Virus record (IMG/VR): IMGVR_UViG_2547132278_000008
Location: 1 to 12,292 of that record
Direction: 5' to 3' (one strand)
DNA length: 12,292 nucleotides
Origin: a virus
Lineage: Duplodnaviria; Heunggongvirae; Uroviricota; Caudoviricetes
The notes under the pieces are model-generated. The model was not told the DNA's origin. It saw nothing but the letters and a program-made list of their open reading frames with translations, and made no database searches. Each line of letters begins with the position of its first letter. Within the stretch, counting starts at the first letter, position 1. Of the stretch, positions 1 to 12,292 are shown one piece after another. Position numbers and translations under genes: made by a program.

Positions 1-769
<769 letters not shown>

Positions 770-774
770 AACAA

Positions 775-814
775 AAGCCTGCTTTAAAGAGAGTTTGAAG
801 CAGGCTTTCTTTTA
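775..814 (+). terminator. Rho-independent terminator after the exonuclease remnant
   Basis: 10-bp stem AAGCCTGCTT (775-784) pairs with AAGCAGGCTT (799-808), followed by TCTTTT. Confidence 0.6.
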
Positions 815-929
815 AAGAACAGTCGCCTTTCAATCATTTCCTGCCTGTATTTAATACTTTTCCGCCTGATAGGTTTAGTCAAAATGCAGCCATCGAAACG
901 CAAATGTAACCAAACAGAAGGAGACTTAC

Positions 930-1739
930 ATGAGTTCGGTTGAAAATGTAATGACAAATGATGATCTGGACGAGCTGACAGCCATGTTGCAATCACTTGA
1001 TGAACCAGTAAAAAAAGCTGCACAGGTTGAAAATACTGATGATATTGACGATCTGCTGCTCGGCCTAGATGCTGGCGTAGCCATGAGTTCTGATGATGTT
1101 GCCGAAGAACTGTTCAATGAAGAAAAAGCAGGTGATTTCAGCTCTACTTTAAATGAGTTGGAGTTAGCGCATGAGCCTATAAACGTAATTAACGCTGAAA
1201 GTGTTGAAGCTGCCGAAAACGAGCCAGAACAATTGGGATTTATTGAGGTTGAAGAGTGTGTTGAGGTTAATGATGAATTAAAAGTTCAACAGTCAAATGA
1301 TAGCAATACAAATAAAAAAGCTCGTACTGCAAGAGGTCCTCGTTTTACTTTAAGTGATAAAGATGATTCGTTTTTCAATAAAGCGGGCTTAGAAAAAGAT
1401 ATTTTCTTAGACGCTTACGATAACGCGCCTGTCAAAGCAAAGGATAAGATATTAAACCTTCTTAATTGGTTTAGCGGAGGTCCAGATATTAGTGTTTACA
1501 CGGTAATTTCCATGAGACACCTTCTCACAGAAAAGAAGGCTACAAGTAATAGTATTAAGATTGCTTTAATGAGCAATCCAGAAAAACCGTATCCGCTTAA
1601 CACTGCGTCAACTCAGGCTGGGCAAATGATGGCTGTATTTCCAGCGACAGGAATTGCCGTTAGAGACGGTGGAAATCTAACATTGAACGAAGAATCACCG
1701 ATCGTTAAGAAGTTTGTCGCGGAGTACACTATTGGATGA
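930..1739 (+). CDS. Hypothetical protein with a strongly acidic N-terminal half (269 aa); candidate DNA-mimic or anti-restriction protein
   Basis: ATG at 930 with GGAG 8 nt upstream. The first ~125 residues hold roughly 35 Asp/Glu against ~4 Lys by hand count; the C-terminal half is mixed-charge. No recognised motif. Confidence 0.6.
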   Translation: MSSVENVMTNDDLDELTAMLQSLDEPVKKAAQVENTDDIDDLLLGLDAGVAMSSDDVAEELFNEEKAGDFSSTLNELELAHEPINVINAESVEAAENEPEQLGFIEVEECVEVNDELKVQQSNDSNTNKKARTARGPRFTLSDKDDSFFNKAGLEKDIFLDAYDNAPVKAKDKILNLLNWFSGGPDISVYTVISMRHLLTEKKATSNSIKIALMSNPEKPYPLNTASTQAGQMMAVFPATGIAVRDGGNLTLNEESPIVKKFVAEYTIG

Positions 1740-1815
1740 CGTTCCCCTACTTAAAATAAAGCCCATAGAGAGCTTTATAGTACTGGGTAAGCCAATCACA
1801 TACCCAGCACCACAA

Positions 1816-1864
1816 AAACGCGCCAGAGAGCTTCTCGTTTGCATTTCTGGCGCGTTTTATTTGA
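1816..1864 (+). terminator. Rho-independent terminator
   Basis: 12-bp stem AAACGCGCCAGA (1816-1827) pairs with TCTGGCGCGTTT (1846-1857), followed by TTTTATTT. Confidence 0.55.
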
Positions 1865-1922
1865 TTGCCAGACATAAAATCAAATGCAAAAATAGGTATA
1901 TACTTACCTATCGAGAAAGAAG

Positions 1923-2516
1923 ATGATTGCAGCCGAAAAAATCAAACAGCGAAAGCGCGACAACTCTCTTCGTGACCTCTGGAGAACACCTGACTGGCTG
2001 TTTTCTGCCATTCAACGTTATCTTGGAGTGACATTTGATGTTGACGTTGCCTGCAACAAGGACAATGCAAAGCTGCCTAATTTCATAGGCGTTGAGCGTG
2101 ATGCTTTGAAATCTGAATGGGGACAGCCAGGTACAATTGCCTTCCTCAATCCACCCTACTCCAAAATCTACCCCTGGATTGATGCGGCTATACGTGAGCA
2201 GGCTCGCGGAGTTACAACAGTGATGCTAATTCCTCAATCCCTAGATACAAAGTGGTATGAGCGTGCAACAGAGTGTGCGAATGAGACGATTATTCTGTCT
2301 GGTGGCCGCGTAGCGTTTGTCGAGCCTGACGTAAATCTGGGTCAGGTAGAAGTAAACATCAACCCAGGTGGCAGTATGCTCGTTGTTTTTCGAGGATTCT
2401 GTCAGGACGCTGGGCACTCTATAAGCAAGATCCCTTTGGACGTCATGAAAAGTCTGGGAGGGTATGATCCTGCGAATGTGATCAGGAAAAAAAGACCATC
2501 AAAGAAGGCTGCTTAG
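1923..2516 (+). CDS. Phage-type DNA N6-adenine methyltransferase (small Dam family, 197 aa)
   Basis: Motif IV FLNPPYS is present, and the WRTPDWLF N-terminal signature and ~200 aa size match the small phage Dam family from memory. An inverted repeat ATAGGTA...TACCTAT (1893-1912) lies just upstream of the start. Confidence 0.8.
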   Translation: MIAAEKIKQRKRDNSLRDLWRTPDWLFSAIQRYLGVTFDVDVACNKDNAKLPNFIGVERDALKSEWGQPGTIAFLNPPYSKIYPWIDAAIREQARGVTTVMLIPQSLDTKWYERATECANETIILSGGRVAFVEPDVNLGQVEVNINPGGSMLVVFRGFCQDAGHSISKIPLDVMKSLGGYDPANVIRKKRPSKKAA

Positions 2517-2537
2517 TTTGTTCTGGCGTCTGTAATT

Positions 2538-2602
2538 AGCCTGCTTCTGTATATATAAATAACCACATATTAATTATTAATATACGGAAGCAGGCTGTTT
2601 TG
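2538..2602 (+). terminator. Long-loop hairpin with T-tract (terminator-like) after the methyltransferase
   Basis: AGCCTGCTTC (2538-2547) pairs with GAAGCAGGCT (2587-2596), then GTTTTG. The loop is 39 nt and AT-rich. The stem core is the same as in the 775-808 terminator. Confidence 0.4.
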
Positions 2603-2701
2603 TATCAGAGACTCCAGACCTGAACATCACTACAGAATCCACTAGAACCCCTTCCCAGACGCTTTAAAATCGATTTTATGAACCACTTTAAGGAAACCAA
2701 C

Positions 2702-2932
2702 ATGTCATACCCGACTAATGTCGTTGCGCTCGTAGAGAGCGATTTTCTGGCCCAGGCTCGTGAAATGATGAAAGATCGTGAGCAGGCTTTCAACTTGTAC
2801 GAATGGGCAATTAAGTGCTTGCATCTTGGCGAGCATCGCGAACTTGTTGAACAGCTTTTAGGTGAGTTGATCAATGAGGTGTTTGCCTTGAATGTTCAAC
2901 TACATGGTAGAGAAAATAATCAATCACAATGA
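2702..2932 (+). CDS. Hypothetical small protein (76 aa; alternative start at 2678)
   Basis: ATG at 2702 preceded by AAGGA (2690-2694). Translation MSYPTNVVALVESDFLAQAREMMKDREQAFNLYEWAIK... has no recognised motif. Confidence 0.4.
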   Translation: MSYPTNVVALVESDFLAQAREMMKDREQAFNLYEWAIKCLHLGEHRELVEQLLGELINEVFALNVQLHGRENNQSQ

Positions 2933-3514
2933 TAGATAAGTACAAACTATTCATAAAGTGAATTGTAAGTGCTAAGATCTGATAGTTTCCAGTCGTAGAC
3001 TGGAGACTCGACCTGATGGGTGGGGGTAAGCGTCACTGGCGTCAGGTTTAAAAAAGCTCACTACCAGCGTAGAACTGGTGCCGTTTAGGTGTCGGGGAAG
3101 GGGGAACCAAAGTGAGCAGAGACAAGGGTCACTTTATGATTGTCGAGTCTGGGGTGTTTCGAGAGGTTGAATCCAGTACTCCCCTTCATAAAGTGTGGGA
3201 AGATCTCGGTTCTGGGGTGCTGTCATCCATAACTTCCCAAGTCTAAGCTGGCAGTAGACTTAGACCATAACTTTTCAGGTTATGAAACGACCAGGTTGGT
3301 GAGAGATTTTTATACTCACCTCCCTGGGAGAGTATTACCTGAAAAGACAACCTCTCACTTCGTTCGAGGTGAACTTCACTCACTTCGTTCGTTCAGTTCA
3401 GGTTTATAAAAACCTGTTCTGGGAAGTAATTTGTTTATTTTAATAATTATTAACACGCACGCGTGTGCGCACGCGCGAGGAAAAATCGGCGCGGCGCTTG
3501 ATTCAGGAGTTTAT
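2933..3514. other. ORF-free, repeat-rich and hairpin-rich intergenic region; candidate structured ncRNA, origin or regulatory hub
   Basis: No ORF of 60 aa or more on either strand. Hairpins include CCAGTC gta GACTGG (2989-3003), GGTGAG...CTCACC (3298-3320) and AGGTTT ataa AAACCT (3401-3416). Direct repeats include TCTGGGGTG at 3138-3146 and 3211-3219, and CACTTCGTTCG at 3356-3366 and 3381-3391. Confidence 0.3.
3453..3477. repeat. 25-nt perfectly alternating purine-pyrimidine tract (Z-DNA-prone) with central CACGCGTG palindrome
   Basis: ACACGCACGCGTGTGCGCACGCGCG read directly; lies about 40 bp upstream of the RNase HI start codon. Confidence 0.9.
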
Positions 3515-4105
3515 ATGACGACGAAGACACCAGCCCGATCGCAAGCAAAAACTCGCAAAAAAGACAAAAACAAAAATTCTCCCCGCACCAATCCCACAAC
3601 GCCTGTCGTAGAGTTCAATCCCCAGCTTAAAACCGTGAAAATCTTTAGTGATGGCTCTTGCCTTAAAAATCCGGGTGGCCCGGGCGGTTACGGTATCGTT
3701 CTCCAGTATCGTGGTGAGGAACGCGAGTTCTCAGATGGTTTTCATAGCACCACCAATAACCGCATGGAGATGATGGGGGCACTTATCGGGCTGGAGCGTT
3801 TGAAATATCCATGCAACGTTATTTTGCACTCTGATAGCCAGTATCTGAAAAACGGCATGACACAGTGGATGAAATGGTGGAAACGCAATGGATGGATGAC
3901 TTCTGACAAAAAACCGGTAAAGAATGTTGATCTGTGGAAGCGTCTGGATGAGGCCGCAAGTCGACATAATGTTCGCTGGAAGTGGGTTAAAGGTCACGCC
4001 GGGCATCGTGAAAATGAAATATGTGATCGACTCGCGAAGATCGCAGCTTTTTCAGCAGCAGATATGCCTCACAAGAAAGATATTGGTTTTGTTTATAACA
4101 AATAG
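3515..4105 (+). CDS. Ribonuclease HI paralog (196 aa) with a ~45-aa basic N-terminal extension
   Basis: AGGAG at 3505-3509 precedes ATG 3515. The core aligns by eye to E. coli RNase HI with all catalytic residues present: IFSDGSC (D), NNRMEMMGA (E), HSDSQY (D), [18 protein letters not shown] (H, D). The extension is Lys/Arg/Pro/Thr-rich. Confidence 0.85.
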
Positions 4106-4202
4106 TAAGTAAGTGTTTACCTATCATTTTAAATCATGTATCTTATCGGCGTCAGGATGACAATGTGTCGGTAAGACACAGTTCCAGGATGGAACGAGAA
4201 AG

Positions 4203-4224
4203 GCGGCTGGCAATCGCCAGCCGC
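4203..4224 (+). terminator. GC-rich hairpin (possible terminator or 5'UTR structure)
   Basis: GCGGCTGGC aatc GCCAGCCGC forms a 9-bp stem; the downstream tail CTCTTTCT is only weakly U-rich. Confidence 0.35.
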
Positions 4225-4253
4225 AACTCTTTCTGACACTGGATGGAGTCCAC

Positions 4254-4748
4254 ATGGCACGTCAAACCTATTTCACTTCTGTAACTAAACGTCCTCGTTC
4301 TTTACGTCAAATTTTGGCCGAATTATTTAGCGGTCGTGTTATGTCACGTCTTGATGAACTAGAGACTACCGTTCGGTTGCTGAATGAACGTTTAGATAAT
4401 CAAGCGTCAGTTGTTGCGAACGTGGGGGCGATTGTTGCCTCTGGTTCTTCACGCGAAGCGAAAAGTACACGGCCTTTAGTGAAGGAGAAAAACAACAAGG
4501 ACAGTTCGAATGGAAAATTTTCAAAGAAAGAGGCTGAAACCAATGGCCTACGTTCTCATTATAGTTTCACTGGCGACGGTAGCCGTTCCAGCCGGCCAGA
4601 GCCTTTTGATGCCGGGTTCATCCATCACCACACCTCCGTCGACGACAATTACCACCACTCCAGTAGAGCGTCCTGTCACTCTGGATGGGATGACGGTGGA
4701 TGCGATACCTCAAGTTCATCCGGTTACTCAGGATCATGCTGTGACTAA
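4254..4748 (+). CDS. Hypothetical protein; N-terminal ~85 aa look coding, C-terminal part is doubtful (overlapped by a +1 frame ORF)
   Basis: GGAG at 4245-4248 precedes ATG 4254. The N-terminus is coiled-coil-like, but after about residue 90 the translation becomes Ser/His/Cys/Gly-rich low complexity. Confidence 0.35.
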   Translation: MARQTYFTSVTKRPRSLRQILAELFSGRVMSRLDELETTVRLLNERLDNQASVVANVGAIVASGSSREAKSTRPLVKEKNNKDSSNGKFSKKEAETNGLRSHYSFTGDGSRSSRPEPFDAGFIHHHTSVDDNYHHSSRASCHSGWDDGGCDTSSSSGYSGSCCD

Positions 4749-4761
4749 GGCGGTTGTATGA
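4510..4761 (+). CDS. Small putative secreted or membrane-anchored Thr/Pro-rich protein (83 aa)
   Basis: AAGGA at 4496-4500 precedes ATG 4510. It has a signal-peptide-like N-terminus (MENFQRKRLKPMAYVLIIVSLATVAVPAGQS) and a TTPPSTTITTTP tract, and its stop overlaps the next start as ATGA. Confidence 0.4.
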   Translation: MENFQRKRLKPMAYVLIIVSLATVAVPAGQSLLMPGSSITTPPSTTITTTPVERPVTLDGMTVDAIPQVHPVTQDHAVTKAVV

Positions 4762-4946
4762 ACTGGTTTTCAAATCACTTTGGAAAAATTTGGCTGGCAA
4801 TTCTTGCCCTCATGGCCGCCGGTTGGGTATCGAACATTATAAAACTTGTTTGCTCTGGCGATCTCCAGTTTCAGGCTGGCATGACCTTGGCTCGTGTAGT
4901 TGGGATTTTTGTTTTTCCAGTCGGTTCGGTACTTGGTTATTTCTGA
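4758..4946 (+). CDS. Small membrane protein (62 aa, two predicted transmembrane helices)
   Basis: ATG 4758 overlaps the preceding stop (ATGA). Hydrophobic segments IWLAILALMAAGWV and VVGIFVFPVGSVLGYF. Confidence 0.45.
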   Translation: MNWFSNHFGKIWLAILALMAAGWVSNIIKLVCSGDLQFQAGMTLARVVGIFVFPVGSVLGYF

Positions 4947-5001
4947 CGGCTGTTAGTGCATATGCATTGACCATCTTTGCGTAAGCAATTTATGTAATTA
5001 G

Positions 5002-5020
5002 AAAACAACTTGTTTTGACA
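5002..5020. promoter_or_regulatory. Perfect palindromic operator-like site AAAACAA-C-TTGTTTT overlapping a consensus TTGACA hexamer
   Basis: Read directly at 5002-5016; TTGACA at 5015-5020. Sits 23 nt upstream of ATG 5040. A possible -35/-10 pair (TTGACC 4967-4972, TATGTA 4991-4996) lies upstream, but the promoter assignment is uncertain. Confidence 0.45.
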
Positions 5021-5039
5021 AATAATAAAAGGAAAACAC

Positions 5040-5465
5040 ATGTTAGGTTTCTTCAAAAAGAAAACTCGTAAAGCTGTTATCGAAGTCAAAAAAATGGAGA
5101 ACCGTGATGCGGTTGAGGCCACCGTGTGGGGCGCGTACATGATCTCCTATGCCGACGGCACATGTGACGCAAAAGAAATTGCCATTCTTGAGAAGACAAT
5201 TGCAGCTCTGCCTGCGTTTTCTCCGTTTGCTGGTGAAATTGCCCAAATGAGCGCCAATATCCGTGCTCGTTACGAAGCGTCCCCTCGTTCTGCTAATGCA
5301 CAGGCTATTCGTGAGCTGTCTGATATTGCGGGTACTCCAGAGGCGGTCGATGTTCTGTGTCTGTGCCTTGATATTGCCGATCAGGACGGCATTGGTGAAC
5401 AAGAAGAGCAGGCACTGAAAAAGATCGCCCAGGCGCTTCAGTTGTCACTGGATGCTTATCTCTAA
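5040..5465 (+). CDS. TerB-like (tellurite-resistance TerB family) protein, 141 aa
   Basis: AAGGA at 5029-5033 precedes ATG 5040. Two TerB-type repeats with acidic Asp-Gly motifs (ISYADGTCDAKEIAILEK and CLDIADQDGIGEQEEQALKKI) match the TerB architecture from memory. Confidence 0.7.
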   Translation: MLGFFKKKTRKAVIEVKKMENRDAVEATVWGAYMISYADGTCDAKEIAILEKTIAALPAFSPFAGEIAQMSANIRARYEASPRSANAQAIRELSDIAGTPEAVDVLCLCLDIADQDGIGEQEEQALKKIAQALQLSLDAYL

Positions 5466-5623
5466 TGCTTGAGAGATTCCGGCTTGTGATCGTCATTGCT
5501 CTTCTGGTGATGGCGGTGTTGGTGGATTTTACGGGAAAGATGATGTCTGTCATTTCTGATGGCGTCCTCATTGGTTTGGCGATCTACTTCGCTTATCCGT
5601 TAGTTCGTAAAGCAAAGTGTTAA
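5465..5623 (+). CDS. Unannotated small membrane protein (52 aa), translationally coupled to the TerB-like gene
   Basis: TAATG stop/start overlap at 5463-5467. Hand translation gives MLERFRLVIVIALLVMAVLVDFTGKMMSVISDGVLIGLAIYFAYPLVRKAKC with two hydrophobic segments. It is below the 60-aa threshold of the ORF track. Confidence 0.5.
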   Translation: MLERFRLVIVIALLVMAVLVDFTGKMMSVISDGVLIGLAIYFAYPLVRKAKC

Positions 5624-5625
5624 TG

Positions 5626-5653
5626 ACAAGGGCCATTTGGCCCTTGTGTTTCG
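5626..5653 (+). terminator. Rho-independent terminator after the TerB-like/membrane pair
   Basis: ACAAGGGCC attt GGCCCTTGT forms a 9-bp stem, then GTTTCG. Confidence 0.5.
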
Positions 5654-5730
5654 TTGACCGAAATAGAGAGTTTGCACCTTTACGTTTAGCTTGCTCCCCT
5701 TTTATGCCACATCACAATAAAGCCAATAAG

Positions 5731-5745
5731 AAAACAACTTGTTTA
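5731..5745. promoter_or_regulatory. Second copy of the operator-like palindrome (AAAACAACTTGTTTA)
   Basis: Matches the 5002-5016 site at 14 of 15 positions within a shared AGAAAACAACTTGTTT context; sits 17 nt upstream of ATG 5763. Confidence 0.45.
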
Positions 5746-5762
5746 AGCATTAAGGAAAACAC

Positions 5763-6329
5763 ATGTGCGAGAAATGCAAAGCAATAGCTGATGAACAAAA
5801 CGCCCTATTCGAAGAAATGGATGCTAATGAACTTGTCAAAATGTTAGGCATTGTTCGGGGAACAGAAGACGTTTCTATATTTGAGAGACTGTTTACAGTA
5901 CTTAATTTTAATTCCACCTTTGAAGAGCCAACTCAGGTTGTAGCTTTGGCACACCATTTCGGTGTTCATTATCTTGCCGAAAAAGAGCGCGCTAATAAGT
6001 TGCAGGCGACTTTGGATATGGTGAGCGAGACTCAAGGAACCCATGACGGTAACAATAGTGAGACGATTATTGCCAGCAAAGATCGTGAAATTGCCGGACT
6101 TAAGTCTTCTCTAACGATGTTGATGTCTGCAATCAATCTTATGTCTTCTAAAGCGGGATATAAAATGCCATCACTAAACAGTGACGATCCAATGGCCGTT
6201 CGCCAGCTTTTGGGAGCAATGGCCGACCAGCTTGATGATACGAAAAGTCGGCTTGAAGACATGATGCGGGAGCTTACGCATCGCCACGACTTGAATAAGC
6301 AACCGCACAAAACGCAATACGCACTCTAA
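5763..6329 (+). CDS. Hypothetical protein (188 aa)
   Basis: AAGGA at 5752-5756 precedes ATG 5763. No recognised motif. The gene has its own operator-like site upstream and a terminator downstream. Confidence 0.6.
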   Translation: MCEKCKAIADEQNALFEEMDANELVKMLGIVRGTEDVSIFERLFTVLNFNSTFEEPTQVVALAHHFGVHYLAEKERANKLQATLDMVSETQGTHDGNNSETIIASKDREIAGLKSSLTMLMSAINLMSSKAGYKMPSLNSDDPMAVRQLLGAMADQLDDTKSRLEDMMRELTHRHDLNKQPHKTQYAL

Positions 6330-6346
6330 TACTGCACCAGTCGACA

Positions 6347-6368
6347 GGGGGCGAAAGCCCCCATTTTT
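6347..6368 (+). terminator. Rho-independent terminator with GAAA tetraloop
   Basis: GGGGGC gaaa GCCCCC followed by ATTTTT. Confidence 0.7.
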
Positions 6369-6427
6369 ACGCCTTAAATCTGCTGTAACGCCTATGAATG
6401 CAGCTTTTATGCCTTTTTAAGTTTGCG

Positions 6428-6472
6428 ATAATTACACCAATCAGAAAACAAATTATTTAATGGTGTAATTAT
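6428..6472. promoter_or_regulatory. 12-bp perfect inverted repeat embracing a degenerate operator motif and the start codon of the 6471 gene
   Basis: ATAATTACACCA (6428-6439) pairs with TGGTGTAATTAT (6461-6472). The 21-nt spacer holds AAAACAAaTTATTTA (6445-6459), and the A and T of ATG 6471 lie inside the right arm. Confidence 0.45.
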
Positions 6473-8156
6473 GAATACAGCCCTTTCCATCATCGACGAT
6501 GCCAGCTCAAACACGGCTATCGACTATCGTCAGGAAATGAATGTCATCCACGAAATCGTGGCCGAGTGCGAGAAAGAGATCGCCTTCATGTATCAGGTAC
6601 ACGACTTCGTTTATGGCGACGAACGCCACAACATGATTAATCGCCTGCTGAGACTAAACCATCGACCAGATGAAGATCGCTCGCGTTTAAATCGAGGTTG
6701 GTTGGATAAAGTCGATCTGGAATGGGTGAAACAGAATATTTGGGCCGAGTACTGGAGGAAGGTCACGGACATGACTAACGTTTTGCTGATCATGCCAGCT
6801 TCCCGTCGAGATGAGTGGCGCGAGCAGTTTATAGAGGGCAAACAGGAAGTCATCAAAACTGACAGAACCGGCTGCCAGATGAAGGTTAAAGAGTTCGTTG
6901 GTGTACCGGAGTTCAAAGCAGAAACGGTCATACCCACGATGCTTAATTTGCTGAATGACAGGCACAAATATCTCTCTGAGCGCGTGTATGGCTTGTTTAA
7001 GGCGCTGAGTCCTGCGCACAAGACAAATAAGACAAACGGTTTCAGCGAGCGTCTGATAATCGCTGACTGCATTTCTGATTTCTGGCGGGACAGCGTTAGC
7101 GTGAACTATCGCAAAGAGGACTACATCGACGATCTGCGTGTCTTGCTTCATTTCTTCGCGCACAAAGAATTTATTACCATCAACCGCACTGCTGAGGTGC
7201 TATCAGCTGCGTATCGGGCAAACGACTGCCAGACCGGTGACTGGATGAACGTCGATGGAAATCTGATGCGCGTGAAGATGTTCAAGAACGGCAACGTTCA
7301 CTTTGAAATACATCCTGACGTGGCCTGGAAGTTGAATGAGGTGCTGGCTTACAGTATGCCTGCTGCAATCCCCGCGCCATGCCGAACTGCGCCAAAAACA
7401 CGGGCACCAAAGCAGTTCGGGTTAATCCAGAAGACGATCTCCGTGCCGGTTCGCACTGCGCTTCGTGACGGGCGATTGAGCAAAGACAAAGGCGTATGGT
7501 ACTTCTCTGATTCAGCTCTCCAGAAGTCGCAGGTGGAAGAGCTTGAGCGCACACTGAGCTTCATTGGCGGCGTGCAGGAGAAAAAGCACTGGCAGTTCCC
7601 GTATGACATCGGCCATACGCTAAATACGATTGTGGCTACCGGTTTAATACCGGATACAAAATCACACCAGTTCTACCCTACCCCACGCTTGATTGCTGAG
7701 TACGTTGCAAGAGCCACTGAATTGAAGCCTGGTGAGAAGCTGTTGGAGCCTCAAGCCGGACGTGGGGATCTTCTGGCCTATATAAACGCCGATCTGGAAG
7801 ATGTTACCTGCATAGAAATCGCACCTCTCTTCGCTGATATCCTGCGTGGAAAAGGGTATACGAACACGATTTGCTGCGACTTCATAAAGTGGTCTGAGGA
7901 CAACGCAGGTTATCAGTTCGACAAAATCGTTATGAACCCGCCGTACTCGCTTGGTCGTCATAGAGAGCACACGCTGGCTGCGCTGGGGCATCTGAAAGTC
8001 GGCGGGCGTCTTGTAGCAGTATTGCCGGGCACTGCGCCAATACTGGACTGGATGACGATGGATAATTACGTTTATGCCAGAGGGAAGTCGTTTACCAACG
8101 AGTTTGAAGACACAGGGATCACAGTCAGCGTATACGTTTTCAAACGCGTTAAATGA
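6471..8156 (+). CDS. Large protein (561 aa): N-terminal ~400 aa of unknown function fused to a C-terminal N6-adenine methyltransferase domain
   Basis: A motif I-like segment (LLEPQAGRGDLLAYI) and motif IV (VMNPPYS) sit in the last ~150 residues. The N-terminal region has no motif I recognise. Confidence 0.75.
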   Translation: MNTALSIIDDASSNTAIDYRQEMNVIHEIVAECEKEIAFMYQVHDFVYGDERHNMINRLLRLNHRPDEDRSRLNRGWLDKVDLEWVKQNIWAEYWRKVTDMTNVLLIMPASRRDEWREQFIEGKQEVIKTDRTGCQMKVKEFVGVPEFKAETVIPTMLNLLNDRHKYLSERVYGLFKALSPAHKTNKTNGFSERLIIADCISDFWRDSVSVNYRKEDYIDDLRVLLHFFAHKEFITINRTAEVLSAAYRANDCQTGDWMNVDGNLMRVKMFKNGNVHFEIHPDVAWKLNEVLAYSMPAAIPAPCRTAPKTRAPKQFGLIQKTISVPVRTALRDGRLSKDKGVWYFSDSALQKSQVEELERTLSFIGGVQEKKHWQFPYDIGHTLNTIVATGLIPDTKSHQFYPTPRLIAEYVARATELKPGEKLLEPQAGRGDLLAYINADLEDVTCIEIAPLFADILRGKGYTNTICCDFIKWSEDNAGYQFDKIVMNPPYSLGRHREHTLAALGHLKVGGRLVAVLPGTAPILDWMTMDNYVYARGKSFTNEFEDTGITVSVYVFKRVK

Positions 8157-8217
8157 TAGGTAAATACTTACTTAATTTATGTAAGAATGTAGTTACTAAA
8201 CGATAAGAGAAAAACAC

Positions 8218-8922
8218 ATGAGCAACCTCCAGTTAGAGCATTTTAACGTCACAGGCCATTCCGATTTTCCTTTCAAGTTTACATTGAAAGGTTATGCAGA
8301 GGATGCGGTAGGCCAGATCATTATTGATAAAGGCATCGTTAAGTTTGAGGGGAATTTTGATGAATCCGCGAAAACATTCATAGACTTCGTTGCCAAACGT
8401 TGGAGCGAGCAATGGAAAGACCTGGAAAAGCGCGCTAGTGAGTTTGATCGGTTCATGGATGCAATGGATACAGCAAAAGAGGCTCTTGCTGCCGGGACTC
8501 CGTTAGATCTGGAGTCACTTTTCAACGGCGAAGTGGCCTCTGCGATGTTCGCCACCATGTTCGCGGGTGAGTTCGTCCGCAGCGGTGCCAAAAACTACCT
8601 TGAGCTGGATTACAACGTCCCTGCAATTGGCGATTTCGTCGTTACCATCCAACGCAAAGAAGGTAAGACGCCAGGTGAACGCGTCGCAGAGCTTGAGGCC
8701 GTTGTGGATCAGCGTAACGGAGAGTGTGACCGTTTGATCAACGAGCTTCATGCACTTCGGGAAGAAAGAATATGCGCGGGTAGTAATACACGTAATGCAG
8801 CGGATATCTACTTCCAGTTAGTTGAGGAATGCCAGATTCCACCAGGTGGCTCTCTTGTCGATTACGTCAGACATTTAATGGCGGAAGTTAACTCCAGCCA
8901 TAAAGATGGTGAGGTGCGCTGA
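8218..8922 (+). CDS. Hypothetical protein (234 aa), downstream of the methyltransferase fusion with no intervening terminator
   Basis: Leader ...AAGAGAAAAACACATG. Long ORF with a clean shadow pattern; no recognised motif. Confidence 0.6.
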   Translation: MSNLQLEHFNVTGHSDFPFKFTLKGYAEDAVGQIIIDKGIVKFEGNFDESAKTFIDFVAKRWSEQWKDLEKRASEFDRFMDAMDTAKEALAAGTPLDLESLFNGEVASAMFATMFAGEFVRSGAKNYLELDYNVPAIGDFVVTIQRKEGKTPGERVAELEAVVDQRNGECDRLINELHALREERICAGSNTRNAADIYFQLVEECQIPPGGSLVDYVRHLMAEVNSSHKDGEVR

Positions 8923-9302
8923 TGTTTGGCATTGATGCACAGCGTATAGCAGCTTTTGCAAAAAGTCCTCTTGATAATCCCTTGTCTCGTAGTGAGCAAA
9001 TGGCGCTGGCAAGGCTTTTTCTTCACATTCAAAAACAGGCAGACGTTTTCAATAACATGCCTGATCAACCTATTCTGGATGGTCACATCCAGATGGTCAT
9101 TAACAGTCATGAGAAAGGCTGGGCTGCAATCGTCCCCTGCACAATTACATACAAGTTGGCGAAAGAGGTTCAAGAGTTTCGAAAAGTCAGCGTCGAATCA
9201 GAGTCTACCAAAGCCGCAATAAACACTCTTATTCGCATGGGGTTCACATGGGACGGTGGAGCTTACTGGCAAGCACCTCAACCCATTTTATCCGACAATT
9301 AG
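8922..9302 (+). CDS. Hypothetical protein (126 aa), translationally coupled to the 8218 gene
   Basis: TGATG stop/start overlap at 8920-8924. No recognised motif. Confidence 0.55.
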   Translation: MFGIDAQRIAAFAKSPLDNPLSRSEQMALARLFLHIQKQADVFNNMPDQPILDGHIQMVINSHEKGWAAIVPCTITYKLAKEVQEFRKVSVESESTKAAINTLIRMGFTWDGGAYWQAPQPILSDN

Positions 9303-9332
9303 GCGCTACAAATCCTTCTGCATGAATAAATA

Positions 9333-9367
9333 AAGGCCATAAGTTATGGCCTTAAATAAATTGTTTT
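9333..9367 (+). terminator. Hairpin with downstream T-tract (terminator-like); tail carries a degenerate operator half-site
   Basis: AAGGCCATAA g TTATGGCCTT (9333-9353), then AAATAAATTGTTTT (9354-9367). Confidence 0.45.
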
Positions 9368-9440
9368 CTACCTTTTCTTATTTGTGAAAATAAACCAGCA
9401 CTTGGTAGTGCTTATGTAACAGCAAAGAAGAGAAAAACAC

Positions 9441-9941
9441 ATGAGTAACAAAATCGAAAATCCCGTAGTTCTCATTCACAAGCGCGAGAACCACGACTCC
9501 TATGCGGTGGCGATCACCAATGGGAGTCACGATTTTTACGATGGCCTGCTAATGGCCTCAGTGTCGCCTGATGAGGCAGACAACTCTTTTGCCGTCTTCG
9601 CTATGGTTGGTTACTACATGGCTGCCGAAATTGAGAAGTTGCGGGCGCAAAGAGACGCATTAGCGGCGGAGAATGCAGCCCTGAAAGAATCTGAGCGAGC
9701 ATTCGATGCGATGTGTGCCGAGGAACACGGAGATAATTGGGTTAGCGAATTAACGGAGACTCCAGCCACCGATACTTTTCTGGCTGAAGTACGTGCGCAG
9801 GGCGTGGATATGGCTCGTAACGCGATGATTGATTTTGTTGATGGTGAAGTTGGGCCAAACAAGAACGTTCCGGGGCTGATTAGAGGCGCAGAGATATGCG
9901 TAAGTATTGCTGAACAGCTTCGTAAAGGAGTCATCCAGTGA
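9441..9941 (+). CDS. Hypothetical phage protein (166 aa), first gene of a six-gene coupled operon
   Basis: Leader ...GAAGAGAAAAACACATG. Contains a coiled-coil-like AEIEKLRAQRDALAAENAALKE segment. Confidence 0.6.
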   Translation: MSNKIENPVVLIHKRENHDSYAVAITNGSHDFYDGLLMASVSPDEADNSFAVFAMVGYYMAAEIEKLRAQRDALAAENAALKESERAFDAMCAEEHGDNWVSELTETPATDTFLAEVRAQGVDMARNAMIDFVDGEVGPNKNVPGLIRGAEICVSIAEQLRKGVIQ

Positions 9942-10405
9942 GCAAGATTGACTATCAGGCACTGCGTGAAAAGGCAGAGAAAGCAACGTGTGGTAAGTGG
10001 TCGCTCGAATATGGAGAGAGCCGATTTGATGGTGATGATGCGCTAATTCATCGTGAAGTTGCTGGATATATTCCTATTTGCAGAATTGAAGGAGCGCATC
10101 CTGAAAGCGGTTTCGATGAAGATTTCCAGATGGAACAGCAGGCCAATGCTGAATTCATCGCCGCAGCCAGTCCAGCTACCGTGCTGGCACTACTGGATGA
10201 GATCAACGCATTAGAGGAAACGCGTATCAACGATGTTTGCCGTATTGCGGAACTAACAAAACAACTGGAGTTGGCAAAATCAAAACTCAACGAGCAGCGT
10301 GAGTATTACGAGGGCGTTATCTCGGATGGAAGTAAGCGCATAGCCGCTCTTCTTCGCAAGGACAATCTTGCCAGCGCCACGAACATTGAAGGTGAAAGAA
10401 AATGA
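9938..10405 (+). CDS. Ead/Ea22-like phage protein (155 aa)
   Basis: GTG start with AAGGAG at 9925-9930; GTGA overlap with the upstream stop. The N-terminal [18 protein letters not shown] and later [23 protein letters not shown] resemble lambdoid Ea22-like proteins from memory. Confidence 0.6.
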
Positions 10406-10725
10406 CCACATCGCACTCTGCTATTACCCAAGAAAAAGCCTTCAACATACTCGAACGACTAGAGACGCTCGCTACGGAGGAGGATATATCCCCGGAGAAA
10501 CTGGTTGAGTTCAGCCGTGTGATATTGCGTCGCAAGAACGATATGGAGCGGCTGACATCTGGCGCTCCATCCTTATCAGTCAGGCGAACACTTTGTTGCA
10601 GCTTCTGCAACAAATCCCAGTACGCCGTCAAAAAGTTAATTGCTGGGGACGCCGTTTTCATCTGCGACGAGTGTGTGGATGTGTGCAACAGAATTATCCG
10701 GGGAGAGAAAGAGGGATCAGCATGA
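10402..10725 (+). CDS. Small protein with a C-terminal ClpX-type C4 zinc-finger domain (107 aa)
   Basis: ATGA overlap at 10402-10405. [35 protein letters not shown] aligns closely to the ClpX N-terminal zinc-binding domain ([34 protein letters not shown]). Confidence 0.65.
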
Positions 10726-11252
10726 AATTTTCCAAATTTTCTGAGTTGGTGAATCGTATTTTGTCCAACAACCACAGCCATCGTCGCGATATGGATGTAA
10801 CGATCGTTGTTCATTCGCCTGGTCGCATCGGTTCAACACCATCAGTTGAGGTTCAGTCAATTCAGGCGGGTTTTGATTGGGATGCCGGGCAAGTGATGAT
10901 TTTTCCAGCACAGCCACTGACCACGCTAACACCAGAGCAGGTTGCTGATATCACTGATAGTGTGCGCAAAGGTCAGTCTTGGCACGCGTATCAGGAATAC
11001 AAGAAGCATAAAGAGCAGTTGGAAAAATTGTCGATGGAGTTGGAAGCCGCTAAACAGCGGGAAAAAGATCTGTTTATGGAAAATGTTCGACTTAAGTCAG
11101 GTATAGCCGGTCTGATACACCTCGGTATTCGATATGCGGATGTTGAGGTCATGAAAATTGCTGGAGATGCCCAGCTTTCTACTCCATGCACTGACAGCAT
11201 CATAAACAGCATTGCAGCAGGCATTTTCACCAAAGAGGGGGCAGCACGATGA
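10722..11252 (+). CDS. Hypothetical protein (176 aa)
   Basis: ATG 10722 overlaps the upstream stop (ATGA), with GAGGG 6 nt upstream. The track ORF 10593..11252 is an in-frame 5' extension that overlaps the previous gene. Confidence 0.55.
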
Positions 11253-11434
11253 GAACACTAGAGGTTCGCGCTGAAGACGTAATCCCTGGTGATGTGCTCA
11301 TAACATCTAAAGGTCAACAATGTGCGGTTAAATCTTTTTGGATGGAAAATGACAAAGTGACTCTGTTCGGTACGGATGGTTCCGAAACTGATTATGACTA
11401 CGACGAATTGCTTGTTGTTGAGAGAGCTGCCTAA
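11249..11434 (+). CDS. Hypothetical small protein (61 aa)
   Basis: ATGA overlap at 11249-11252 with AGAGGGGG upstream. Confidence 0.45.
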   Translation: MRTLEVRAEDVIPGDVLITSKGQQCAVKSFWMENDKVTLFGTDGSETDYDYDELLVVERAA

Positions 11435-11940
11435 TGACCACCGTTAACAATAAGAAATGCTACCCAAGCGAGAAATATCTTAATGAGCTGATCACCAACA
11501 TTGAGTTTGCTGCAAGGGCACCAGTTGAAGTCGTGAGAGCGATTGCAGCAGAGCTACAGAAGCACCGTAAGGCCTATGCCAATACAGCCGCATCTAAGGA
11601 TGGTTGGATAAGCTGTAGTGAGCGAATGCCTGTAATTGGCGAGCTAAATTGGAGAACTAGTTTTCCTTTACTGGTTATGTGTGAGATCGGCGTTATACCT
11701 GCTTATTACGGCTTTGTGAGCGTTAATGGTGATAGGCATTATGGCTTTATGGAGAGTCTTAAATACGGAGACGATAACGGCAACCATCCTCAAACTAATG
11801 AATATGGTCTGATTAGCAATGTCACACACTGGATGCCACTACCAGAACGCCGCAGGAGTCGAACAGTGAATAATGCAGAGTTATTTCAGAAAATATGTAA
11901 GCGTCAACGGAGCACCGTATTGACGCTTATTTATTGGTGA
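11434..11940 (+). CDS. DUF551-like phage protein; last ~14 codons and stop are supplied by the inserted IS66 terminus (3'-disrupted)
   Basis: TAATG overlap at 11432-11436. GWISCSERMP and THWMPLPE motifs are typical of DUF551 from memory. The IS-like terminus begins at 11897, inside the ORF. Confidence 0.55.
   Translation: MTTVNNKKCYPSEKYLNELITNIEFAARAPVEVVRAIAAELQKHRKAYANTAASKDGWISCSERMPVIGELNWRTSFPLLVMCEIGVIPAYYGFVSVNGDRHYGFMESLKYGDDNGNHPQTNEYGLISNVTHWMPLPERRRSRTVNNAELFQKICKRQRSTVLTLIYW
11897..11929. repeat. Terminal inverted repeat of the IS66-family element (starts GTAAGCG), containing an internal 9-bp palindrome
   Basis: GTAAGCGTCAACGGAGCACCGTATTGACGCTTA; IS66-family ends typically begin 5'-GTAA. 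Internal arms AAGCGTCAA and TTGACGCTT. Confidence 0.55.
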
Positions 11941-12292
11941 GTACTACGTTCCATGGCAGGAGTTCGTCAACACGGTTGGAGGGCCATTCCGGCAGTACGC
12001 TCAGAATATGGCGCAGATACGCTTCCGGATCGATACCGTTCAGTCGGCAGGTGCCGATCAGCCCGTACAGCAGTGCTCCACGCTCGCCGCCGTGATCGCT
12101 ACCGAAGAACACGTAATTTTTCTTTCCGAGACAGACTGCACGAAGCGCTCTTTCCGCTGTGTTATTGTCCACCTCCGCCAGACCGTCATCACTGTAATAA
12201 CAGAGGGCGTCCCACTGATTCAGTACATAGCTGAACGCTTCGCCCAGTCTGGATTTTTTCGACAGCGTGCCATTCTTCTCCACCATCCATTC
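11927..12292 (-). CDS. IS66-family transposase (TnpC-like), C-terminal part; 5' end outside window
   Basis: The - strand translation ...NNTAERALRAVCLGKKNYVFFGSDHGGERGALLYGLIGTCRLNGIDPEAYLRHILSVLPEWPSNRVDELLPWNVVLTNK matches the conserved IS66 transposase C-terminus from memory. Confidence 0.8.
   Translation of the reverse strand, partial: EWMVEKNGTLSKKSRLGEAFSYVLNQWDALCYYSDDGLAEVDNNTAERALRAVCLGKKNYVFFGSDHGGERGALLYGLIGTCRLNGIDPEAYLRHILSVLPEWPSNRVDELLPWNVVLTNK

Follow-up and report, generated by a model that had tools for sequence, protein, structure and literature searches.

In a stretch of 12,292 nucleotides from a virus of the class Caudoviricetes (IMG/VR record IMGVR_UViG_2547132278_000008, positions 1 to 12,292; hereafter, the window), six tightly packed genes, g1 to g6 (9441-11940), lie in the variable accessory array of an Escherichia coli phage-plasmid. 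The sole interpretable product of this block, the 107-amino acid protein g3, mimics the N-terminal domain of ClpX in soluble form, with a ClpX-type zinc-binding domain (ZBD) that is preceded by a conserved helical hairpin. The best reading of g3 that we can offer, and one that we put forward tentatively, is that it functions in trans as a decoy, or anti-adaptor, for the ligands of the ClpX N-terminal domain.

The N-terminal domain of ClpX is a docking hub for adaptors and several substrates, and ClpXP controls sigma-S, SOS mutagenesis proteins, some antitoxins and phage replication proteins, as well as restriction alleviation. If the decoy reading is correct, a free natural copy of the docking hub would provide a mobile element with a new, simple route to rewire host proteolysis, and would be the first instance in which such an element has copied the module that a host AAA+ protease uses to select its substrates.

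Domain architecture of g3

The gene and its two parts are located as follows.
10402..10725, + strand: g3, 107 amino acids, two-domain 'ClpX C4-type zinc finger protein' (phrog_6797, 4e-58; WP_024187529.1)
10402..10581, + strand: g3 N-terminal module, residues 1-60; predicted helical hairpin (helices 10-25 and 31-52), followed by a linker (residues 53-62) that extends into the region of the ZBD
10585..10707, + strand: g3 ClpX-type ZBD, residues 62-102; Pfam zf-C4_ClpX (PF06689) at residues 65-100

The original prediction held that the 107-amino acid product is the ClpX N-terminal zinc-binding domain without the ATPase, and Pfam, NCBIfam, a sequence search of the Protein Data Bank (PDB) and Foldseek all bear this out. 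The match to zf-C4_ClpX (PF06689) scores 57.5 bits against a cut-off of 27 (E 1.2e-15), above the gathering threshold, as do all Pfam domain calls reported here. Residues 62-102 align without gaps with residues 11-51 of E. coli ClpX, with 68% identity over 41 residues; the putative Zn ligands, C66, C69, C88 and C91, occur in CxxC-18-CxxC spacing, and F68 and I98 are the equivalents of ClpX F16 and I46. No AAA+ module is present in g3, which stops 7 residues past the ZBD, and the NCBIfam ClpX equivalogs, which have cut-offs of 359 and 371, match it at only 42 and 40 bits, over model positions 4-48. For calibration, g3 matches E. coli ClpX at 57.6 bits, whereas the E. coli ZBD matches the ClpX of Listeria at 64 bits and that of Neisseria at 39 bits; because the g3 score sits between these two values, its ZBD falls within the sequence range of working ClpX ZBDs.

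The g3 structure considered here is an AlphaFold2 monomer prediction, not a solved structure. The mean predicted local distance difference test score is 75, with 82-89 in the ZBD and about 80 in the helices, the linker (residues 53-62) is disordered, and the predicted template modeling (pTM) score is 0.37. In Foldseek comparisons, the ZBD of the model, a treble-clef fold, superimposes on 2DS5/2DS6, and the root mean square deviation is 1.0 Å over 38 residues (71% identity, probability 1.00). Besides the motif, the sequence identity and the fold, g3 keeps F16, C43 and the helix hydrophobics of the E. coli ClpX ZBD; it differs in the lack of the AAA+ module, in the C-terminal placement of the ZBD (N-terminal in ClpX) after an unrelated helical hairpin, and in eight surface substitutions.

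The hairpin was overlooked in the original prediction of a near-canonical ZBD protein, so that the ZBD call stands but g3 is a two-domain protein rather than a bare ZBD. A search with this N-terminal domain alone, run on 1.84 billion representative proteins, retrieved members of the same two-domain family and obvious truncations of it but nothing else; among the hits were Salmonella and P88-type members with about 40-50% identity in which the ZBD is still present. On the evidence of this search, the domain does not occur in other architectures. No relative was found with a profile of the domain in PDB sequences or in a relaxed Pfam scan, with nothing below E ~0.04. Homology to adaptors or anti-adaptors (SspB, RssB, IraD/M/P) was not detected either: the N-terminal domain has no Pfam or PDB relative, and the whole protein matches ClpX only. 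In the family alignment, 14 residues of the N-terminal domain are invariant, most of them charged (E11, K12, E18, R19, E21, A24, E26, E27, E36, R43, R44, D47, L51 and S53). Many database records, of older date, call the g3 family 'carboxylate--amine ligase', a name that has no support in Pfam, NCBIfam or PDB.

Conservation and selection in the g3 family

We assessed per-column conservation of the ZBD in 23 members of the family. Invariant in all of them are the four Zn cysteines, F68 (ClpX F16), K71, G82, I87, E90, V92 and C95; the position equivalent to I46 holds I, V or L in 21, and the hydrophobic residues of the C-terminal helix of the ZBD are kept. Eight surface positions systematically differ from ClpX, namely, G18, E23, R25, P31, S32, Y34 (to F), L42 and D45. 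The family ZBDs are 46-76% identical to ClpX at the protein level. Compared with the clpX codons of E. coli MG1655, the proportion of synonymous differences (pS) is 0.77-1.0, that is, saturated, and the proportion of nonsynonymous differences (pN) is 0.20-0.30. Because pN stays this low while synonymous sites are saturated, the ClpX-likeness of g3 is old and is kept by selection. Recent capture from the host clpX was considered and rejected given the saturated synonymous sites and a nucleotide identity of 58-65%.

Within the family, the ratio of nonsynonymous to synonymous substitution rates (dN/dS) ranges from 0.19 to 1.28 and falls at 0.2-0.6 in most pairs, with three ZBD or N-terminal domain comparisons at 0.8-1.3; among close relatives, the ratio is raised in the ZBD (0.6-1.2). 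The two halves of the protein have partly separate histories: between the window g3 and its counterpart in phage-plasmid D6, the N-terminal domain is 100% identical and the ZBD 79%, whereas in the comparison with P88 these values are 43% and 68%. The pattern is consistent with either of two processes, intragenic recombination or diversification of the ZBD, which comprises 41 codons only. The g3 open reading frame (ORF) is intact in all backbones examined.

Distribution of g3 and its relatives

Full-length relatives of g3 were found in Escherichia, Shigella and Salmonella only. They are carried by three unrelated backbones with differing neighbor genes, namely, SSU5-like phage-plasmids, the P1-like phage-plasmid D6, and P2-like prophages of the P88 type, where the gene directly follows gpA-ParM-StbB. 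The exact protein occurs on 692 contigs, and hundreds to thousands of contigs carry the gene. Of 5426 complete E. coli genomes, 107 contain close DNA copies, at 108 places, of which 102 are on plasmids. The gene is absent from phage Cyrano and is, in that sense, dispensable for the backbone. A search for a conserved partner showed that the gene after g3 varies by backbone, with no similarity between P88 gp20 and g4, and that g4 is not kept beside g3 in other backbones. In all three backbones, an Ead/Ea22-like gene is at most one gene away from g3: it directly precedes g3 in D6 and in the SSU5-like elements, and lies downstream of it in the P88 type. This proximity may reflect a functional pairing or recombination modules that travel together.

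The sequence feature itself is not new, since PGAP already names the protein 'ClpX C4-type zinc finger protein', and PHROG 6797 is listed as a family of unknown function. Elsewhere among viruses, the T4-like Caulobacter phage Cr30 contains an orphan ClpX-type ZBD ORF of at most 79 amino acids (1222-1461 of its locus), of which the record annotates only the last 41 codons (gp170), and Pseudomonas phage PP9W2 encodes a 65-amino acid orphan ZBD protein. Comparison of g3 with a viral fold library yielded weak matches only (best E 5e-3), including the 65-amino acid orphan ZBD of a Pseudomonas phage. In jumbo phages, phage G among them, a complete ClpX is encoded beside a ClpP-like gene.

A putative decoy of the ClpX N-terminal domain

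A decoy is the most economical reading because g3 is a conserved, selectively kept, ClpX-like free ZBD on a mobile element. Moreover, about 70% identity is not required by the fold alone, given that the Bacillus subtilis protein CsfB keeps the same dimeric treble clef at about 20% identity (PMC5890618). As the g3 ZBD is 68% identical to that of E. coli ClpX, it is reasonable to expect that the two share ligands. In ClpX, F16 and I46 form a hydrophobic pocket used by TF, lambda-O, SspB and RssB (PMC7804408); our assignment of contact residues in the ZBD rests on these two positions only, as given in that paper. The g3 protein, which we expect to be dimeric, would expose the same docking pocket and titrate the ligands that dock there, among them the XB-type tails of adaptors such as SspB, RssB and UmuD and N-domain-dependent degrons of the lambda-O or MuA type. 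Such titration would selectively stabilize N-domain-dependent ClpXP substrates and leave those recognized by the pore, with ssrA-type C-terminal tags, unaffected, and the conserved N-terminal hairpin would add a specific second contact or further oligomerization. In this scheme, that g3 dimerizes and binds zinc is inferred, not observed, and so are all of its partners and its physiological target.

The competition for adaptors put forward in the original prediction has a direct in vitro precedent. Purified free ClpX ZBD, added in trans at 5-20 uM, inhibits RssB-mediated proteolysis of sigma-S by ClpXP (PMC7226468, Fig. 1d), and it is this block of sigma-S degradation by a free ZBD that suggests the decoy reading of g3. 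ClpX without the ZBD still degrades ssrA-tagged proteins (PMC7226468, PMC12383707). As an in vitro competitor, the isolated ClpX ZBD, which is motor-free like g3, is reported to inhibit degradation that depends on adaptors and on the N-terminal domain (PMC7226468, Micevski et al. 2020; Wojtyra/Thibault/Houry, cited in PMC7804408). That competitor is a laboratory construct, whereas g3 would be its natural equivalent on a mobile element, with an extra domain and a proposed activity.

Several observations weigh against this interpretation. Inhibition in trans required a large molar excess of the ZBD (5-20 uM vs 0.6 uM ClpXP; PMC7226468), and a pure decoy leaves the conserved N-terminal domain without a role. 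The surface changes between ClpX and the family (G18 to N/K, E23 to A/T, P31 to D/E, S32 to D/A, L42 to V/A, D45 to N/R/S) could alter ligand specificity, and the position equivalent to I46 is not strictly conserved. Among close relatives, the ZBD evolves faster than the N-terminal domain, which is odd for a simple mimic. In the full-text literature, we found no functional study of g3 or of stand-alone phage ZBD proteins. Finally, in the ClpX-dependent defense system CmdTAC, the degron is a C-terminal AA (10.1101/2024.02.24.581848), so that a ZBD decoy would be of no obvious help. An anti-defense role of g3 directed at CmdTAC was down-weighted since the antitoxin degron is ZBD-independent.

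With even more reserve, the decoy reading of g3 can be generalized to the proposal that enterobacterial temperate phages and phage-plasmids carry a stand-alone mimic of the ClpX docking domain that acts as a viral anti-adaptor and reprograms ClpXP targets, and that may have arisen independently in Cr30 and PP9W2. If so, the possible outcomes would include stabilization of RpoS, of UmuD', or of the replication or maintenance proteins of the element itself. The outcome would match that of the anti-adaptors IraD, IraM and IraP and of phage protease modulators, small accessory proteins that adjust the pathway of a host AAA+ protease. Known phage modulators include T4 PinA and T7 Gp4.5, both directed against Lon, lambda RexB, and SPO1 Gp53, which acts on ClpC. 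None of these proteins shows sequence or fold kinship to g3, and the Ira proteins bind RssB via unrelated folds, whereas the mechanism proposed for g3 is mimicry of the docking domain of the protease itself. The novelty would lie in this function: a natural, trans-acting mimic of a protease docking domain among phage-encoded protease modulators. Such a protein would also be a ready-made tool to separate N-domain-dependent from pore-dependent ClpXP substrates. The phage-plasmids that carry g3 spread resistance genes as well, and in one relative, ISEcp1-blaCTX-M-15 lies a few hundred bases off.

Alternative explanations

The ClpX-like fold might have been reused independently of ClpX, with the ZBD serving as a zinc-stabilized dimerization scaffold and the conserved, highly charged N-terminal hairpin as an effector that binds some other protein of host or phage, for example, a transcription factor, a replication protein or a defense protein. 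We regard this as rather unlikely, even with a clear precedent in CsfB (Gin; PDB 5N7Y), a small, stand-alone, dimeric zinc protein with a treble clef similar to the ClpX N-terminal domain and, in this respect, to the g3 ZBD. CsfB works as an anti-sigma factor, in a role unconnected with ClpX (PMC5890618). The constant presence of the N-terminal domain, under purifying selection and with its 14 invariant residues, the replacement of several ClpX surface residues in the family, and the low pTM score together with the disordered linker, which point to two independent modules, are all consistent with a scaffold. However, CsfB is only about 20% identical to the ClpX N-terminal domain and has a different surface, whereas the g3 family has retained 46-76% identity despite the saturation of synonymous sites, with the F16 pocket residue in all members; furthermore, neither sequence nor fold search retrieved CsfB with g3, 5N7Y being absent from the PDB sequence search at E<=1 and from the top 50 Foldseek matches. 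Should g3 not touch ClpX at all, it would represent a second, CsfB-like reuse of a rare dimeric zinc fold, an informative finding of narrower interest. A still less probable scenario is that g3 is an adaptor or hijacker, which joins ClpX through heterodimerization with a ZBD protomer or through docking of the N-terminal domain on the ZBD, while the other module delivers a target or blocks the pore. The layout of g3, with an N-terminal domain, a disordered linker of about 10 residues and a docking-type domain, resembles that of SspB, and the helix hydrophobics that form the core of the ClpX ZBD dimer (interface according to PMC5890618) are kept. More speculatively, the invariant basic LRR(K/E) stretch in helix 2 faintly recalls the LKxh/LRVVK ZBD-binding motif (PMC7226468). 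No conserved neighbor gene stands out as a candidate cargo, and the LRRK stretch is predicted to be helical, unlike XB peptides. The latter bind as beta-strands. Invasion by a free subunit would be unfavorable as well, given that ClpX ZBDs dimerize in cis inside the hexamer, at very high local concentration.

Least probable of all, to the point that we assign it very little weight, is that g3 is a functionless passenger, a decaying 5' fragment of a captured clpX hitch-hiking in a recombination-prone array. Although the absence of the gene from Cyrano and the abundance of deletions, pseudogenes and insertion sequences in the array would be compatible with such an origin, the intact ORF in all backbones, the four Zn cysteines invariant in 23/23 members, long-range dN/dS well below 1 with synonymous sites saturated relative to clpX, the fusion to a conserved non-ClpX domain, and the spread over hundreds to thousands of contigs all speak against it. 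Mechanisms other than the decoy, the scaffold, the adaptor and the passenger seem, taken together, about as improbable as the adaptor.

Organization of the g1-g6 block

The remaining features of the block and its flanks are the following.
9303..9440, + strand: leader of the block, intergenic, kept in relatives
9441..9941, + strand: g1, 166 amino acids; phrog_492, function unknown; 'Eae-like' in phage Cyrano
9938..10405, + strand: g2, 155 amino acids, GTG start, Ead/Ea22-like; Pfam PF13935 (4.2e-24, 86.1 bits vs cut-off 27)
10722..11252, + strand: g4, 176 amino acids, coiled-coil-like middle; phrog_6026 / phrog_368, function unknown
11249..11434, + strand: g5, 61 amino acids; phrog_15283, function unknown
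11434..11896, + strand: native part of g6, 154 codons, DUF551; Pfam PF04448 (3.2e-10, 41.2 bits vs cut-off 22)
11897..12292, - strand: end of the IS66-family element ISEc47; terminal repeat GTAAGCG... from 11897, with the 3' part of the transposase gene on the - strand

An ORF scan combined with a direct check of the junctions showed that g1 to g6 are six + strand ORFs with in-frame starts and stops, which agrees with the six-gene cluster joined by 1- or 4-nucleotide stop/start overlaps that had been described at the outset. From g1/g2 to g5/g6, the overlaps are GTGA, ATGA, ATGA, ATGA and TAATG (4, 4, 4, 4 and 1 nucleotides), within the strings CAGTGAGC, AAATGACC, GCATGAAA, CGATGAGA and CCTAATGACC, respectively; thus, g2 overlaps g1 by GTGA, and g3 overlaps both g2 and g4 by ATGA. 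For g4, we take ATG 10722 as the start, which matches the RefSeq homolog, rather than the upstream TTG listed by the ORF finder. Purine-rich motifs resembling Shine-Dalgarno sequences (AGGAG, GGTGA, GAGGG, GAGGGGG) lie within the 3' ends of the preceding genes. Overlapping junctions account for 5/5 in the block compared with 2/13 among the other + strand genes of the window (hypergeometric P ~0.002), so that tight packing is specific to the block and not window-wide. With same-strand stop/start overlaps and Shine-Dalgarno-like sequences inside the upstream genes, the block has the layout of a translationally coupled operon and is probably read as one such unit; 'operon' is a reasonable description, in which co-transcription and coupling are deduced from the layout.

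No sigma-70-like promoter was found on the + strand of the 138-nucleotide leader (9303-9440), and because every gene of the window has the same orientation, the block may belong to a longer transcript. In the leader, a GC-rich hairpin (9333-9353) comes after the upstream gene, and the sequence AGCACT-TGGT-AGTGCT (9397-9412), a perfect inverted repeat located 29 nucleotides 5' of the g1 ATG, could be an operator or an RNA hairpin. Rfam detected no family in the whole window. For the six proteins, there were no matches to the defense-system models of PADLOC, and in NCBIfam, g3 alone gave matches, which were partial and to ClpX. The matches of g1, g4 and g5 are limited to PHROG families whose function is unknown, with no Pfam, NCBIfam or PADLOC match for g1.

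At the 3' side, the apparent six-gene operon requires a correction: the overlaps are real, but the end is artificial, having been created by insertion of ISEc47 into g6. Homology to all related phage-plasmids stops at 11896, and from 11897 onward, the identity to annotated copies of ISEc47 (IS66 family) is 98.6-100% among the matches listed. As the phage-plasmid homology ends exactly where the terminal repeat of ISEc47 begins, g6 as read in the window (11434-11940, 168 amino acids) is a chimera cut at 11896/11897, with 154 native codons followed by 14 codons and a stop (11938-11940) derived from the insertion sequence. In pAVS0223-B, the g6 frame is uninterrupted and about 62 residues longer, for a full length of about 216 amino acids. 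The DUF551 gene is an insertion hot spot, with ISEc47 in the window and ISEcp1-blaCTX-M-15 about 300 bp past the gene remnant in pR9-658-1.

The host element and its mosaic array

The best DNA matches of the window are circular E. coli plasmids of 106-113 kb (pAVS0223-B, pR9-658-1) and 'phages' of about 108 kb (CMS-2020a, PhiR41_1, Cyrano). In these relatives, the gene order is exonuclease, Dam, RNase HI, TerB, DUF4942, the array, and then S24 peptidase, ApbC and MetRS. Based on this gene content, we assign the window to the variable accessory array of an SSU5/pHCM2-like E. coli phage-plasmid of about 108 kb, flanked by DUF4942, RNase HI and Dam upstream and by S24 peptidase, ApbC and MetRS downstream, and within this array, the block forms a cassette of accessory ('moron') genes. 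The original prediction had ascribed to the block the make-up of a lambdoid ea region. This holds for the gene families, with Ead/Ea22 and DUF551 identified by Pfam, but not for the element, which is an SSU5-like phage-plasmid by its best matches and flanks; the position between int-xis and the recombination genes that characterizes the lambdoid ea region (b2 / exo-xis) was not found. The lambdoid ea/exo-xis region (Ea22, Ea8.5) shares with the array the Ead/Ea22, DUF551 and Eaa/Eae-like families as well as the arrangement in tightly packed, same-strand, highly mosaic sets of small ORFs. It lies, however, between int-xis and exo, whereas the array lies between the DUF4942 gene and the S24 peptidase/ApbC/MetRS cluster.

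The array is highly mosaic, and deletions, pseudogenes and insertion sequences abound. The g2 gene is intact in the window, whereas pAVS0223-B and pR9-658-1 carry a 186-bp internal deletion (window 9980-10165) and their Ea22-like gene is annotated as a pseudogene by RefSeq; in pR9-658-1, additional genes separate g4 from g5. The segment that corresponds to window 10200-11052 is missing altogether from Cyrano, with the loss of the 3' part of g2, all of g3 and the 5' part of g4, which leaves a hybrid Ea22::g4 ORF. Both the 186-bp loss and the Cyrano loss fall in the coiled-coil genes g2 and g4, as scars of recombination. Further upstream, pAVS0223-B (6170-7068) and Cyrano carry two small genes, of 282 and 615 bp, between a 188-amino acid gene and the DUF4942 gene; both are missing from the window (6329-6471). 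At 4254-4748, a 164-amino acid ORF without a Pfam family has a C-terminal tail rich in Cys, Ser, Asp and Gly (…CHSGWDDGGCDTSSSSGYSGSCCD). The DUF4942 protein itself (6471-8156, 561 amino acids) contains EPQAGRG and NPPY motifs in its C-terminal third and, judging from these, looks like an N6-adenine methyltransferase, a second methyltransferase candidate beside the Dam-family gene at 1923-2516.

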